Made by a program: the position numbers and the translations under genes
Shown here: positions 36,534 through 56,021 of the stretch, piece by piece
Numbering within the stretch: position 1 is the first letter of the stretch
How the letters are laid out: each line of letters opens with the position of its first letter
The notes under the pieces: generated by a model
Seen by the model: only the letters and a program-made list of their open reading frames with translations
Databases searched by the model: none
What the model was told of the DNA's origin: nothing
Assembly (NCBI RefSeq): GCF_048403405.1
Contig: NZ_CP183129.1
Reading direction: 5' to 3' (one strand)
DNA length: 64,000 nt
Source of the DNA: Escherichia coli
GTDB lineage: Bacteria > Pseudomonadota > Gammaproteobacteria > Enterobacterales > Enterobacteriaceae

Positions 36534-36612
36534 CCTGTAACAGATCCAGCCATTTTCTGCGTAATTGTGATCTGAGTTGTAAAACGCAGATCATTATCTG
36601 TGTTTTACAGAT
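36534..36612. promoter_or_regulatory. array of ATCTG/CAGAT inverted half-sites upstream of ydjL (candidate operator)
   Basis: CAGATC at 36541, GATCTG-N12-CAGATC at 36570-36593, CAGAT-N4-ATCTG at 36587-36600, ATCTG-N7-CAGAT at 36596-36612; ends about 75 bp before the ydjL start. Confidence 0.4.
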
Positions 36613-36687
36613 TTAATGTTGACCTCAAAAATCATGTGGGTAAGTATGATGACCATCTAAGCAAAACAAAACACAGAGGATGACGCA

Positions 36688-42048: not shown

Positions 42049-43029
42049 ATGAAAAAGATACCTTTAGGCACAACGGATATTACGCTTTCGCGAATGGGGT
42101 TGGGGACATGGGCCATTGGCGGCGGTCCTGCATGGAATGGCGATCTCGATCGACAAATATGTATTGATACGATTCTTGAAGCCCATCGTTGCGGCATTAA
42201 CCTGATTGATACTGCGCCAGGATATAACTTTGGCAATAGTGAAGTTATCGTCGGTCAGGCGTTAAAAAAACTGCCCCGTGAACAGGTTGTAGTAGAAACC
42301 AAATGCGGCATTGTCTGGGAACGAAAAGGGAGTTTATTCAACAAAGTTGGCGATCGGCAGTTGTATAAAAACCTTTCCCCGGAATCTATCCGCAAAGAGG
42401 TAGAAGCCAGCTTGCAACGTCTGGGTATTGATTACATCGATATCTACATGACGCACTGGCAGTCGGTGCCGCCATTTTTTACGCCGATCGCTGAAACTGT
42501 CGCAGTGCTCAATGAGTTAAAGGACGAAGGGAAAATTCGCGCTATAGGCGCTGCTAACGTCGATGCTGACCATATCCGCGAGTATCTGCAATATGGTGAA
42601 CTGGATATTATTCAGGCGAAATACAGTATCCTCGACCGGGCAATGGAAAGCGAACTGCTGCCGCTATGTCGTGATAATGGCATTGTGGTACAGGTTTATT
42701 CGCCGTTAGAGCAGGGATTGTTGACCGGTACCATCACTCGTGATTACGTTCCGGGCGGCGCTCGGGCAAATAAAGTCTGGTTCCAGCGTGAAAACATGCT
42801 GAAAGTGATTGATATGCTTGAACAGTGGCAGCCACTCTGTGCTCGTTATCAGTGCACAATTCCCACTCTGGCACTGGCGTGGATATTAAAACAGAGTGAT
42901 TTAATCTCCATTCTTAGTGGGGCTACTGCACCGGAACAGGTACGCGAAAATGTCGCGGCATTGAATATCAACTTATCGGATGCAGACGCAACATTGATGA
43001 GGGAAATGGCAGAGGCCCTGGAGCGTTAA
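42049..43029 (+). CDS. ydjG: aldo-keto reductase
   Basis: 326-aa ORF, AKR family. Confidence 0.9.
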   Translation: MKKIPLGTTDITLSRMGLGTWAIGGGPAWNGDLDRQICIDTILEAHRCGINLIDTAPGYNFGNSEVIVGQALKKLPREQVVVETKCGIVWERKGSLFNKVGDRQLYKNLSPESIRKEVEASLQRLGIDYIDIYMTHWQSVPPFFTPIAETVAVLNELKDEGKIRAIGAANVDADHIREYLQYGELDIIQAKYSILDRAMESELLPLCRDNGIVVQVYSPLEQGLLTGTITRDYVPGGARANKVWFQRENMLKVIDMLEQWQPLCARYQCTIPTLALAWILKQSDLISILSGATAPEQVRENVAALNINLSDADATLMREMAEALER

Positions 43030-43054
43030 ATACTCAACACGATTCACCTCTGTT

Positions 43055-43083
43055 TCTGTGAAAACTGTGATGAAAATCTGTGA
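43055..43083 (+). promoter_or_regulatory. three direct CTGTGA repeats upstream of ydjF (candidate autoregulatory operator)
   Basis: CTGTGA at 43056, 43065 and 43078; shares the ATCTGTG core with the ydjL-upstream array. Confidence 0.3.
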
Positions 43084-43165
43084 TTCAAACAGGTTATTTT
43101 GAAAGTAAACATCGGTTATGCGATAATCGCGCTAATGTGATGTAAAAAGATACAGGGGTGTAATC

Positions 43166-43923
43166 GTGGCGGCAAAAGACAGGATTCAGGCAATTAAGCA
43201 AATGGTTGCCAACGATAAAAAGGTGACAGTCTCAAATTTGAGTGGGATTTTTCAGGTAACCGAAGAAACCATTCGCCGCGATCTCGAGAAGCTGGAAGAT
43301 GAAGGCTTTTTGACCAGAACCTATGGTGGTGCTGTTTTAAATACAGCGATGTTGACGGAGAATATCCATTTTTATAAGCGCGCTTCATCGTTTTATGAAG
43401 AGAAGCAGCTTATTGCACGCAAGGCACTACCCTTTATCGACAATAAAACCACTATGGCAGCCGATTCCAGTAGTACCGTTATGGAATTGCTCAAATTGTT
43501 GCAGGACCGTAGTGACCTGACGTTGCTAACTAACTCGGCGGAAGCGATTCATGTTCTGGCTCAATCAGAAATTAAAGTCGTTTCAACGGGGGGGAACTAA
43601 ACAAAAATACACTTTCCCTGCAAGGAAGAATTACTAAAGAGATCATCAGCCGCTACCATGTCGATATCATGGTAATGAGTTGTAAAGGTCTTGATATTAA
43701 CAGCGGCGCGCTGGACTCTAACGAAGCGGAAGCTGAAATCAAAAAGACAATGATCCGTCAGGCGACAGAGGTTGCGTTATTGGTTGATCACTCTAAGTTT
43801 GATCGCAAAGCTTTTGTCCAGTTAGCTGACTTTAGTCATATTAATTACATAATAACTGATAAATCACCGGGTGCAGAGTGGATAGCATTTTGCAAAGACA
43901 ATAATATCCAGCTGGTGTGGTAA
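43166..43923 (+). pseudogene. ydjF: DeoR-family transcriptional regulator, interrupted by a frameshift in this sequence
   Basis: GTG at 43166 encodes the HTH N-terminus and stops after …VVSTGGN at 43600; the next frame continues ELNKNTLSLQGRITKEIISRYHVDIMVMSCKG… to 43923; break lies in the G7 run 43588-43594; the two parts total 252 codons. Confidence 0.85.
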
Positions 43924-44040
43924 TTTAAGCACACGTTGTCAATATTATTTGTTCCTGCGCCTGGAAAATAAAATGATGATAAAGATGCGGCAAGTGAATT
44001 TGCCGCAATTGCTACCTTTTTAGCAAATCCGAGGCACCTA

Positions 44041-45399
44041 ATGGAACAATATGATCAAATTGGCGCAAGACTGGACCGCTTGCCTTTGGCCCGGTTTCAT
44101 TATCGTATATTTGGTATTATAAGCTTTAGTCTGTTATTAACGGGTTTTTTGAGTTATTCAGGCAATGTTGTTTTAGCAAAGCTGGTAAGCAATGGATGGT
44201 CAAATAATTTCCTCAATGCCGCCTTTACCTCGGCATTAATGTTTGGTTATTTCATCGGCTCTCTTACCGGTGGGTTCATCGGTGATTATTTTGGGCGGCG
44301 CAGGGCTTTTCGCATAAATCTTCTCATCGTCGGTATTGCGGCAACAGGGGCCGCTTTTGTCCCTGATATGTACTGGCTCATCTTCTTTCGCTTCCTGATG
44401 GGCACAGGAATGGGGGCGCTGATTATGGTTGGCTATGCTTCGTTTACGGAGTTTATCCCCGCGACGGTGCGTGGAAAATGGTCCGCGCGGCTCTCATTTG
44501 TCGGTAACTGGTCGCCCATGTTGTCTGCGGCGATAGGCGTGGTGGTTATCGCTTTTTTTAGTTGGCGGATAATGTTTCTGCTGGGTGGTATTGTCATACT
44601 GTTAGCCTGGTTTCTCTCAGGTAAATACTTTATTGAGTCGCCTCGATGGTTGGCGGGGAAAGGACAAATCGCAGGTGCAGAAAGCCAACTTCGTGAAGTA
44701 GAGCAGCAAATTGAAAGAGAGAAGAGTGTTCGTTTACCCCCGCTTACTTTGAATCAGAGCAACAGCAAGGCTAACGTAATCAATGGTACTTTCTGGCTGC
44801 TGTTTAAAGGGGAAATGTTACGACGTACATTAGTCGCGATTACTGTTTTAATTGCAATGAATATTTCACTTTATACCATCACCGTATGGATACCGACCAT
44901 ATTTGTTAACTCCGGCATTGATGTCGATAAATCAATATTAATGACTGCTGTTATTATGATTGGCGCTCCGGTAGGAATATTTATTGCGGCATTAATTATT
45001 GATCATTTTCCTCGTCGATTATTTGGCTCCGCCTTACTTATTATTATTGCCGTGTTAGGCTATATCTATTCAATTCAGACTACAGAGTGGGCGATTTTAA
45101 TCTATGGCCTGGTGATGATCTTCTTTTTATACATGTATGTTTGCTTCGCGTCGGCGGTTTATATCCCGGAGCTCTGGCCAACGCATTTACGCTTGCGCGG
45201 TTCGGGTTTCGTTAATGCCGTCGGACGGATCGTCGCGGTCTTCACGCCTTATGGCGTTGCGGCACTATTAACGCATTATGGGTCAATCACGGTGTTTATG
45301 GTGCTTGGCGTGATGTTAGTGCTCTGTGCGCTGGTTCTCTCCATTTTTGGCATCGAAACGCGGAAGGTGTCGCTGGAAGAGATTTCTGAGGTGAATTAA
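44041..45399 (+). CDS. ydjE: MFS transporter
   Basis: 452-aa ORF with 12 TM helices, paralogous to ydjK. Confidence 0.9.
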   Translation: MEQYDQIGARLDRLPLARFHYRIFGIISFSLLLTGFLSYSGNVVLAKLVSNGWSNNFLNAAFTSALMFGYFIGSLTGGFIGDYFGRRRAFRINLLIVGIAATGAAFVPDMYWLIFFRFLMGTGMGALIMVGYASFTEFIPATVRGKWSARLSFVGNWSPMLSAAIGVVVIAFFSWRIMFLLGGIVILLAWFLSGKYFIESPRWLAGKGQIAGAESQLREVEQQIEREKSVRLPPLTLNQSNSKANVINGTFWLLFKGEMLRRTLVAITVLIAMNISLYTITVWIPTIFVNSGIDVDKSILMTAVIMIGAPVGIFIAALIIDHFPRRLFGSALLIIIAVLGYIYSIQTTEWAILIYGLVMIFFLYMYVCFASAVYIPELWPTHLRLRGSGFVNAVGRIVAVFTPYGVAALLTHYGSITVFMVLGVMLVLCALVLSIFGIETRKVSLEEISEVN

Positions 45400-46143: not shown

Positions 46144-47160
46144 TTAATCATCCGGCGTCAGTTCGCCGCGCAGGTTTTGGCTCATGGCCTTGCGAATGGT
46201 TTCAGTATCCAGTTCCTGGCTAAGCAGGTAATGCAGTTTGGTTAGTGTGGCTTCTACAGTCATATCTGCACCGCCAATAACGCCGGCATGGGCGAGGGCG
46301 TTACCGGTGGCATAACCACCCATGTTCACTTTACCGGACATACATTGTGTCAGGTTGACCACCACAATACCGCGATCGCTGGCTTCTTGTAATTCCTGCA
46401 GGAAGGCTTTGTTTTGTGGCGCATTACCCACGCCATATGAGCGCAGAATCAATGCTTTCACCGGTTGGCGCAGAAAATTGCGCACGACGTCAGCAGAAAT
46501 CCCTGGATAAATCGTCACTACGCCAATCGGTTGTGGGGTGATTGGATGAACGATCAATTCCCCTTCACCGTGCGGGGCGGGTGGCGTATTCAAACGACGA
46601 ATATGGATACCTGCTTCCAGTAACGGAGGAAGGTTTGGAGAGGCAAACGCATCAAAACCATCGGCATGGGCTTTGGTGGTACGGTTGCCACGATAAAGTC
46701 GATTATTAAAAAAGAGAGTTACTTCGTTGATAGGATAATTCGCCGCAACGTACAACGCATTCAGCAGATTAATTTGTCCGTCAGAGCGTAACTCAGCTAG
46801 CGGGATTTGTGACCCTGTCACAATGACCGGTTTACCGAGATTCTCGAGCATGAACGACAGCGCAGAGGCGGTATACGCCATCGTGTCGGTGCCGTGCAGA
46901 ATGACAAAACCATCATAGTCGTCATAATGCGCTTTAATATCTTCAGCAATATGCTGCCAGTCTTCTGGCGTCATATCTGAAGAGTCCATCAGCGGCGTAT
47001 ATTCATGAATGGTGAAATCTGGCATCTCCGGGCGATGGAATTCCGGCATCAGCGCCAGTTGGCGCTGTAGATGACCTGACACCGGAATATAACCCTGCTC
47101 GGAACGCTGCATCCCGATGGTCCCGCCCGTGTAGGCGACGTAAATTGATTTCTTTTGCAT
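46144..47160 (-). CDS. ansA: cytoplasmic L-asparaginase 1
   Basis: Start taken at MQKKSIYVAYTGGTIGMQ… (338 aa); asparaginase threonine motif TGGTIG. Confidence 0.92.
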   Translation of the reverse strand: MQKKSIYVAYTGGTIGMQRSEQGYIPVSGHLQRQLALMPEFHRPEMPDFTIHEYTPLMDSSDMTPEDWQHIAEDIKAHYDDYDGFVILHGTDTMAYTASALSFMLENLGKPVIVTGSQIPLAELRSDGQINLLNALYVAANYPINEVTLFFNNRLYRGNRTTKAHADGFDAFASPNLPPLLEAGIHIRRLNTPPAPHGEGELIVHPITPQPIGVVTIYPGISADVVRNFLRQPVKALILRSYGVGNAPQNKAFLQELQEASDRGIVVVNLTQCMSGKVNMGGYATGNALAHAGVIGGADMTVEATLTKLHYLLSQELDTETIRKAMSQNLRGELTPDD

Positions 47161-47289
47161 GATATTGATATGAATGATATCGAAAGAGCAAAAGTATATA
47201 CGTGAGGCAGGGGGAGCGCACCTGATACTATGCGGATAAGGAAATATGGGGCGAGACAGCGGGAAGAGGATTCGTCGAGGTAAAAAAAT

Positions 47290-55400: not shown

Positions 55401-56021
55401 GTGCTAGACCGCCATCTTCATCCCCGAATTAAACCTTTGTTGCATCAGTGTGTGAAGGTGCTGGATAAACCCGGCATCACGCCAGATGGTTTAACATTAG
55501 TGGGATTTGCCATCGGTGTGCTGGCACTGCCTTTTCTGGCGCTGGGCTGGTATCTGGCGGCGCTTGTCGTCATTTTGTTAAACAGGCTGCTTGATGGTCT
55601 GGACGGTGCGCTGGCGCGGCGCAGAGGGCTTACCGACGCGGGCGGCTTTCTCGATATTTCTCTCGATTTTCTCTTTTACGCGCTGGTGCCGTTTGGTTTT
55701 ATTCTTGCTGCACCGGAGCAAAATGCGCTGGCAGGCGGCTGGCTGCTGTTTGCGTTTATCGGTACGGGCAGCAGTTTTCTCGCCTTTGCTGCACTGGCAG
55801 CAAAACATCAGATTGATAACCCCGGTTATGCACATAAGTCGTTTTACTATCTGGGGGGATTAACCGAAGGCACTGAAACGATCTTACTGTTTGTGCTGGG
55901 ATGTTTATTCCCTGCATGGTTTGTGTGGTTTGCGTGGATCTTCGGTGCGTTGTGCTGGATGACGACCTTTACGCGGGTGTGGAGTGGGTATCTGACGCTG
56001 AAGTCGCTCCAGCGTCAGTAA
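55401..56021 (+). CDS. ynjF: CDP-alcohol phosphatidyltransferase-family membrane protein
   Basis: Start taken at GTG 55401, 5 nt after AAGGAG (206 aa); motif DGLDGALARRRG. Confidence 0.85.
   Translation: MLDRHLHPRIKPLLHQCVKVLDKPGITPDGLTLVGFAIGVLALPFLALGWYLAALVVILLNRLLDGLDGALARRRGLTDAGGFLDISLDFLFYALVPFGFILAAPEQNALAGGWLLFAFIGTGSSFLAFAALAAKHQIDNPGYAHKSFYYLGGLTEGTETILLFVLGCLFPAWFVWFAWIFGALCWMTTFTRVWSGYLTLKSLQRQ

Follow-up and report, generated by a model that had tools for sequence, protein, structure and literature searches.

Two short sequence boxes (hereafter referred to as boxes A and B) lie immediately upstream of the -35 hexamer of the ydjF promoter (PydjF) of Escherichia coli, where they would form a control region, and the same two-box module is found upstream of ydjL, the first gene of ydjLKJIHG. 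From their cross-species conservation, their register and their recurrence in distant taxa, boxes A and B are probably a tandem operator for YdjF, and repeat 2 of the three CTGTGA repeats found in this region is probably a weak CRP addition specific to E. coli.

The ydjG-ydjF spacer and its conserved boxes

The window (the whole 64,000-nucleotide stretch of E. coli DNA analysed) carries the genes ydjL-K-J-I-H-G, ydjF and ydjE on its + strand, in that order. A search with 1201 bases of it (42900-44100) gave 100% identity to E. coli strain B1.H1.39. The ydjG-ydjF spacer, bounded by the ydjG stop at 43029 and the GTG start of ydjF at 43166, is 100% identical to that of E. coli K-12, and a scan identified no terminator-like site between the two genes. 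The ydjF gene (43166-43923, + strand) encodes a DeoR/GlpR-family regulator, the sole DNA-binding protein or regulator encoded in the ydj cluster; the intact protein has the Pfam domains HTH_DeoR (2.9e-17) and DeoRC (2.4e-49). In this strain the gene is a frameshifted pseudogene: alignment to an intact allele shows that a run of eight G has been reduced to seven at about 43580-43587, dividing the ORF into 43166-43600 and 43669-43923. The frameshift is also annotated by PGAP; it could be genuine, making this a null allele, or could result from a sequencing error in the homopolymer.

A sigma-70 promoter for ydjF (43099-43127, + strand) comprises a -35 hexamer TTGAAA (43099-43104), an extended -10 TG (43119-43120) and a -10 hexamer GATAAT (43122-43127). 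It has 10 of 12 matches to the consensus in addition to the TG, a 17-bp spacing, within the 16-18 bp of sigma-70 promoters, and a predicted transcription start at 43134 or 43135. The same TTGAAA-17-GATAAT sequence has been given for ydjF as a constitutive RpoD promoter on the basis of SELEX with the RNA polymerase holoenzyme (Shimada et al. 2014, PMC3946193).

The sequence-only reading of this region had listed three CTGTGA copies spaced by 9 and 13 bp, and the sequence bears this out: the copies on the + strand, hereafter referred to as repeats 1, 2 and 3, occupy 43056-43061, 43065-43070 and 43078-43083, with start-to-start distances of 9 and 13 bp. Repeat 3 reads ATCTGTGA in full (43076-43083), and a fourth TGTGAT is found in the ydjG-ydjF region at 43136. 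The repeats are located 16-43 bp upstream of the ydjF -35 hexamer; the TGTG of repeats 1, 2 and 3 begins 42, 33 and 20 nt before it, respectively, corresponding to about -78 to -52 from the predicted start. The hexamer itself is not over-represented in the 64-kb window (17 occurrences on both strands, 24 expected), whereas three clusters in which any hexamer occurs three times within 28 bp were observed, against 0.44 expected in Markov-1 simulations. The CTGTGA cluster is thus unusual, but these statistics alone are not decisive. The remaining two hexamer triplets of the window are TGATAT, three times at 47160-47180, and TTTCTC, three times at 55647-55673.

We investigated the conservation of the spacer in an alignment of the window with 22 fetched orthologous loci, giving 23 species, all syntenic, from Escherichia, Citrobacter, the Klebsiella oxytoca group, Raoultella, Yokenella, Budvicia, Intestinirhabdus, Symbiopectobacterium and Serratia. 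Conservation was measured as the mean majority fraction per block, a column being considered conserved at ≥90%; these enterobacterial sequences are closely related and are not independent observations. The flank after the ydjG stop codon had a majority fraction of 0.48 (0/26 columns ≥90%). It is followed by the block ACCTCTGTTTCT, with a value of 0.97 (12/12 columns), and by the rest of repeat 1 (GTGWAAAA), with 4/8 conserved columns. The stretch containing repeat 2 was the least conserved of the array (0/9 columns), and the box around repeat 3, AAATCTGTGATTCAGACA, had 15/18 conserved columns. The -35 hexamer was conserved in all six columns (0.96). Third codon positions of ydjF, used as a neutral baseline, had a majority fraction of 0.69, with 19% of sites reaching 90%. 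Conservation across species, which the sequence-only reading had proposed as the test of all three repeats, was thus obtained for repeats 1 and 3 (0.90 and 0.95, respectively, against 0.69) and not for repeat 2 (0.56), which is missing even from E. whittamii. In terms of this alignment, repeats 1 and 3 are inside phylogenetic footprints and repeat 2 is outside them.

Repeats 1 and 3 are the E. coli forms of two boxes, TTCTGTGTAAAA and AATCTGTGATTCAGACA, conserved in the 23 enterobacterial species. Box A of PydjF (TTCTGTGAAAAC, 43054-43065, + strand) holds repeat 1, has its TGTG 42 nt before the -35 hexamer and is kept as TTCTGTGTAAAA in 20 of the 23 species. Box B (AATCTGTGATTCAAACAGG, 43075-43093, + strand) holds repeat 3; its ATCTGTG starts 23 nt before the -35 hexamer, and its CTGTG is invariant across 14 lineages, including Agarivorans and the distant locus L043. 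The conserved unit is not CTGTGA itself but (A/T)(A/T)TCTGT(G), in the forms TTCTGTGWAAAA for box A and AATCTGTGATTCARACA for box B. The two boxes are 21-22 bp apart, about two helical turns, and would thus lie on the same face of the DNA.

Repeat 2 (43065-43070, + strand) is found in E. coli and displays no cross-species constraint, its position being occupied by CTATGA in E. whittamii, CGATGA in Escherichia sp. E1V33 and unrelated sequence in the other genera; on this comparison, the three-repeat pattern is specific to E. coli. Within this species, the ydjG-ydjF locus was present in 4329 of 5426 complete genomes, from which it follows that the ydj cluster is accessory in E. coli. The spacer was ≥99% identical in 3706 of the 4329 genomes carrying the locus, and the SNPs of five sampled spacer variants all lie outside the repeats. 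Strain LZYWN_4 (L039) has a 12-bp deletion, CTGTGATGAAAA, equivalent to window positions 43065-43076, with which repeat 2 is lost and boxes A and B are left 10 bp apart.

Downstream from ydjF, A/B-type boxes were sought upstream of ydjE and none was present. The ydjF-ydjE spacer contains a hairpin (GCGGCAAGTGAATTTGCCGC, 43986-44007) that is conserved across genera and has no T-run on the + strand; the changes in its stem are apparently compensatory (GCGACAG...CTGTCGC in Citrobacter sp. wls619, GGTGGAA...TTCCACC in Budvicia).

Related boxes upstream of ydjL and in distant ydj clusters

A core common to the ydjF repeats and an array upstream of ydjL had been proposed in the sequence-only reading. 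This proposal holds: ATCTGTG is present in both, and on the ydjL side it occupies 36596-36602 and is followed by T, so that seven of the eight bases are those of the repeat 3 version. Box B of the ydjL promoter (PydjL; TATCTGTGTTTTACAGAT, 36595-36612, + strand) has its ATCTGTG 23 nt before the -35 hexamer TTGACC (36619-36624). Two upstream PydjL boxes (36565-36591, + strand), TTGTGATCTGAG, with TGTG at -53, and TTGTAAAACGCAGAT, at -41, are conserved in 21 species; the latter has TGTA in the E. coli window and TGTG in other genera. The -10 hexamer of PydjL, AAGTAT, is poor. PydjL has been reported to be silent in vitro, and the ydj operon to be silent in culture and turned on in the gut of mice (PMC6561318), which is the behaviour anticipated for an operon under specific control.

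Alignments anchored on the -35 hexamers placed ATCTGTG 23 nt upstream in both PydjL and PydjF in essentially every species. Likewise, the TGTG register, counted from the -35 hexamer, was -53, -41 and -20 for PydjL and -42/-41 and -20 for PydjF in nearly all species; an additional TGTG, at +16 or +18, falls on the extended -10 TGTGn motif. CACA was sporadic, being present in three of 23 PydjF and two of 21 PydjL regions, and never at a conserved position. When PydjL and PydjF were compared over the 42 nt preceding their -35 hexamers, 20-25 of 42 positions were identical at offset 0, and this offset gave the best match in 19 of 20 species. The E. coli value was 25/42 (z of about 5) and was equalled by one other 42-mer in the 64 kb. 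In the whole window, the pattern ATCTGTGNTTNANA, which was derived post hoc, is found at these two sites only, the expected number of matches being 0.05. We do not claim a likeness of the two B boxes beyond the core and its position, as 19-mer weight matrices cross-detected the sites weakly: in the window, the ydjL site came 8th with the ydjF-derived matrix, and the ydjF site was outside the top 8 with the ydjL-derived box B matrix. The information common to PydjL and PydjF is mostly the ATCTGTG core and its position.

The Escherichia ydjL upstream boxes also form a near-perfect 14-bp inverted repeat (TGTAAAACGCAGAT/ATCTGTGTTTTACA, 36578-36591/36596-36609), of which box B is the right arm, and the repeat region (36577-36610) was scanned as terminator-like on the + strand. 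In addition, 16 nt at 36591-36606 are 88% complementary to the ydjL Shine-Dalgarno region (36668-36683). Both the inverted repeat and this complementarity are weaker in other genera.

A protein search with YdjF recovered relatives down to 56% identity, and seven distant loci were fetched, with YdjF identities of 70% (Agarivorans), 69% (L043), 63% (Vallitaleaceae), 62% (Caproiciproducens), 61% (L045), 58% (Anaerostipes) and 58% (Clostridium thailandense). All seven contain ydj-like catabolic genes followed by ydjF, in an order that is largely kept; an additional epimerase gene is found in some of them, and at the Vallitaleaceae locus no transporter gene separates the two dehydrogenase genes. 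AATCTGT or AATCTTT boxes flank the -35 hexamer in five of the seven loci (Agarivorans, L043, Anaerostipes, Caproiciproducens and L045), tandem copies being 20-21 bp apart, and clear ATCTGT boxes were not found at those of C. thailandense and Vallitaleaceae. PydjF of L045, in which ATCTGTTTTTCAAATAAAATACT is followed by TTGAAG, shares the -23 register of E. coli, and in PydjL of Anaerostipes, ATCTGTGAAAAAT...ATCTGTAAAACAGACAT is followed by 7 nt and TTGACT. PydjL of L043 carries AATCTGTTATTCGGACAT, which resembles the enterobacterial ydjF-type box, so the two box variants appear to be interchangeable. When 6-mers were counted strand-specifically in 20 promoter regions of 10 lineages, TCTGTG ranked top (12/20), with ATCTGT (11/20) and TGTGAT (10/20) among the highest. 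The maximum obtained with shuffled sequences was 7 (words containing two or more G or C), and the reverse complements of TCTGTG, ATCTGT and TGTGAT were counted 1, 3 and 0 times, respectively. Since gene order is nearly the same in Agarivorans and several Firmicutes, we suggest that the cluster and its regulatory DNA have been transferred horizontally together.

The locus of Serratia sp. H1w (L023 1-8500) was considered as an independent operon arrangement and rejected: it reflects a prophage insertion truncating ydjH, with prophage tail and tail-fibre genes directly upstream of the 5'-truncated ydjH, and the ydjL-ydjI part of the cluster is absent.

Other signals in the spacer and alternative explanations

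The most conserved block of the spacer, ACCTCTGTTTC, directly 5' of repeat 1, is exactly complementary to GAAACAGAGGT, about 100 nt further downstream in the Shine-Dalgarno region of ydjF. The corresponding long-range helix was predicted unprompted by RNAalifold across the 23 species. Its 5' arm (CACGATTCACCTCTGTTTCT, 43038-43057, + strand) is an anti-Shine-Dalgarno sequence that overlaps the first two bases of repeat 1, and its 3' arm (43148-43168, + strand) contains the Shine-Dalgarno sequence AGGGG (43154-43158) and the GTG start (43166-43168). The minimum-free-energy fold for E. coli (-44.8 kcal/mol, z = -4.6) has a helix of about 20 bp that includes the GTG start codon, and the helix was present in the minimum-free-energy fold of all 23 species, in which the predicted probability of the Shine-Dalgarno sequence being unpaired was 0.00 in the read-through RNA versus 0.35-0.98 in RNA from the ydjF promoter. 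Helix cells were 97.8% paired, and only two were changed on both sides; this covariation is weak because both arms barely vary. A duplex-energy permutation test of helix-flank co-evolution, in which two rows were mis-parsed, was not significant (p = 0.25). Pairing was kept with altered sequence in Serratia, Agarivorans (UACCUCUGUUU with AAACAGAGGUA) and L043 (AAACCUCCGCUUCUC with GAGGAAUGGAGGUUU), and the helix was absent from the Firmicute loci examined.

Translational repression by long-range pairing of an mRNA element with the Shine-Dalgarno sequence is known from other anti-Shine-Dalgarno systems. The ydjF helix resembles these systems in its conserved 11-12-nt complement of the ribosome-binding site, located about 100 nt upstream, and in the predicted sequestering of both the Shine-Dalgarno sequence and the start codon; it differs from known elements in that the predicted arm lies upstream of the gene's own promoter. 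As the 5' arm precedes the ydjF transcription start, the helix is predicted to act only on read-through operon transcripts, and it may plausibly keep YdjF synthesis independent of operon induction. We tentatively suggest, as a possibility short of an even chance, that the spacer is a two-layer insulator, combining an operator shared with PydjL, which would have travelled between phyla with the gene cluster, and a conserved anti-Shine-Dalgarno arm that silences ydjF translation on read-through transcripts only.

A cAMP-CRP genomic SELEX-chip study identified ydjF among its new targets, with a cAMP-dependent peak between ydjG and ydjF (Shimada et al. 2011, PMC3105977), and its Table S3 lists the box ACAGATTTTCATCACA at about 1.85297 Mb. 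The reverse complement of this box, TGTGATGAAAATCTGT, occupies 43066-43081, i.e. repeat 2 and the start of repeat 3. The earlier remark that the TGTGA core has no TCACA partner is literally correct, the left half of the 22-bp, two-fold symmetric consensus TGTGA-N6-TCACA being matched at 5/5 positions and the right half (TCTGT) at 2/5; CRP had been set aside in that reading, but the published box maps to this site. With a weight matrix built from the 149 boxes of the same table, the box scored 8.37 bits, the 27th percentile of the 149 boxes, and 29 positions in the window score as well. The score fell to 5.08 bits in E. whittamii and 2.60 bits in Escherichia sp. E1V33, and nothing was found in other genera. 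The proposal that each TGTGA core is a CRP site was rejected, since the other two score ≤2.7 bits and only the published box, itself not conserved, reaches 8.4 bits.

The centre of the box, 43073.5, is -60.5 or -61.5 from the predicted ydjF start and fits a class I position. At class I CRP-dependent promoters, such as lac, the site is centred at -61.5. The ydjF site resembles these in its perfect TGTGA left half, its 6-bp spacer, its centring near -61 and the cAMP-dependent in vitro binding that has been published, but differs in its degenerate right half (TCTGT), its low score and its lack of conservation outside E. coli, and the ydjF promoter also binds RNA polymerase on its own in vitro (PMC3946193).

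Could the whole TGTGA array then be a cAMP-CRP activation site for ydjF? The cAMP-dependent peak, the assignment of a box covering repeats 2 and 3 (PMC3105977) and the class I position of its centre are what this explanation has in its favour, and we consider it unlikely, given the modest score shared by 29 positions in 64 kb, the 2/5 agreement of the right half with TCACA, the values of ≤2.7 bits for the other cores and the absence of the box from E. whittamii, Escherichia sp. E1V33 and all other genera. In addition, the ydjL boxes are not CRP-like and ydjL was not a SELEX target (PMC3105977). The persistence of the conserved boxes in distant loci bears on the same point. Firmicutes keep these boxes and, to our knowledge, have no CRP, so the conserved boxes are not CRP sites. 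The published box reads, on the comparative data, as a recent, weak, E. coli-specific site superimposed on an older predicted operator.

The helix offers a different account, in which the spacer is conserved as an RNA structure hiding the ydjF ribosome-binding site and the CTGTG strings are by-products. The helix does appear in the minimum-free-energy folds of all 23 species, fully sequesters the Shine-Dalgarno sequence and touches repeat 1, but box B and the GTGWAAA part of box A lie outside the conserved pairing, and the boxes are upstream of the local transcription start; moreover, the same boxes occur upstream of ydjL without conserved anti-Shine-Dalgarno pairing, and Firmicute loci have boxes but no helix. 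As an explanation of the boxes it is quite unlikely, and the helix accounts for at most the first two bases of repeat 1, although, given this slight overlap, the conservation of box A may be due partly to RNA structure. That the repeats have no function, having arisen in an AT-rich spacer by chance or by replication slippage, would fit the expected number of hexamer triplets within 28 bp (about 0.44 per 64 kb), the lack of constraint on repeat 2 and the 12-bp deletion between repeats in one strain. Repeats 1 and 3 are, however, conserved far above synonymous sites, their register agrees with that of PydjL and the motif is top-ranked across phyla. This explanation is very unlikely for the array as a whole; on the alignments it is disfavoured for repeats 1 and 3 and plausible only for repeat 2. 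Least probable of all, to a degree that makes it hardly credible, is a LexA (SOS) operator formed by the CTG-containing repeats. A ChIP-chip signal has been reported near ydjF, with a proposed degenerate site at MG1655 1852887-1852906 (PMC3542263), but that site corresponds to window positions 43138-43157, downstream of the -10 hexamer and with no overlap with the three repeats. A LexA box at the repeats themselves was rejected on the CTG/CAG spacing: N10 is required, but CTG and CAG are separated by N9 around repeat 3 and by N7 in the ydjL upstream region. The proposed LexA site, which reads CCCTGTATCTTTTTACATCA on the opposite strand, is situated between the -10 hexamer and the Shine-Dalgarno sequence of ydjF and overlaps the fourth TGTGAT at 43136.

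A candidate YdjF operator

The tandem YdjF operator remains our preferred reading of boxes A and B. As the sole DNA-binding protein of the cluster, YdjF is the natural candidate to bind them. The sequence-only reading had proposed a DeoR-family autoregulatory site; this is retained for repeats 1 and 3, for which the footprints, the register shared with PydjL and the co-inheritance point to YdjF as the candidate binder, and is not supported for repeat 2. We suggest that YdjF oligomers would bind boxes A and B cooperatively at both PydjF and PydjL, and that this binding would couple control of the operon with autoregulation of ydjF. DeoR-family regulators usually have a sugar phosphate as their effector, and a sugar-phosphate intermediate of the pathway is probably the effector modulating YdjF binding.

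At about -80 to -43, the boxes lie beyond the upstream edge of the polymerase footprint, which is not where a repressor classically binds. Because they lie upstream of the -35 hexamer, simple occlusion of the promoter by a repressor is not implied, and repression from there would need cooperative contacts or looping. Alternatively, YdjF may activate, like FucR, a DeoR-family member that acts as an activator. Repeat 2 would be a recent addition, confined to E. coli, which in combination with the first bases of repeat 3 makes up a weak CRP site positioned much as in class I promoters. The CRP binding published from in vitro work would be explained by this site, through which E. coli alone may have gained catabolite control.

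Several features of DeoR/GlpR-family operators are found at the ydj locus. The regulator gene is inside the catabolic cluster it would serve, the boxes are short, repeated and spaced by whole helical turns, and the motif is shared by the promoter of the operon and that of the regulator gene and is co-inherited across distant taxa, as would be the two-box module, with the gene cluster, across phyla. Tandem operators are known for GlpR, and DeoR uses its operators with looping. The predicted ydj boxes differ from such operators in being direct, orientation-biased and located upstream of the -35 hexamer instead of over the core promoter, and we know of no operator that matches the ydj motif, (A/T)ATCTGTG followed by an AT-rich stretch and CARA. 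In the searchable literature, we found nothing specific on YdjF binding or ydj regulation, and no general statement on direct-repeat operators in the DeoR family.

The candidate operator is an ordinary regulatory element that was previously undescribed; the CRP site in E. coli had already been published. The ydj pathway is understood in part (PMC9602453), and YdjF is among the E. coli transcription factors that are still uncharacterized. The analysis provides for it a concrete candidate operator motif, with exact coordinates at both promoters, separated from the published CRP site. If the spacer were indeed a two-layer insulator, synthesis of the regulator would be uncoupled from ydjLKJIHG induction. 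Finally, conservation of the motif from Proteobacteria to Firmicutes suggests that the ydj cluster moves with its regulatory DNA.
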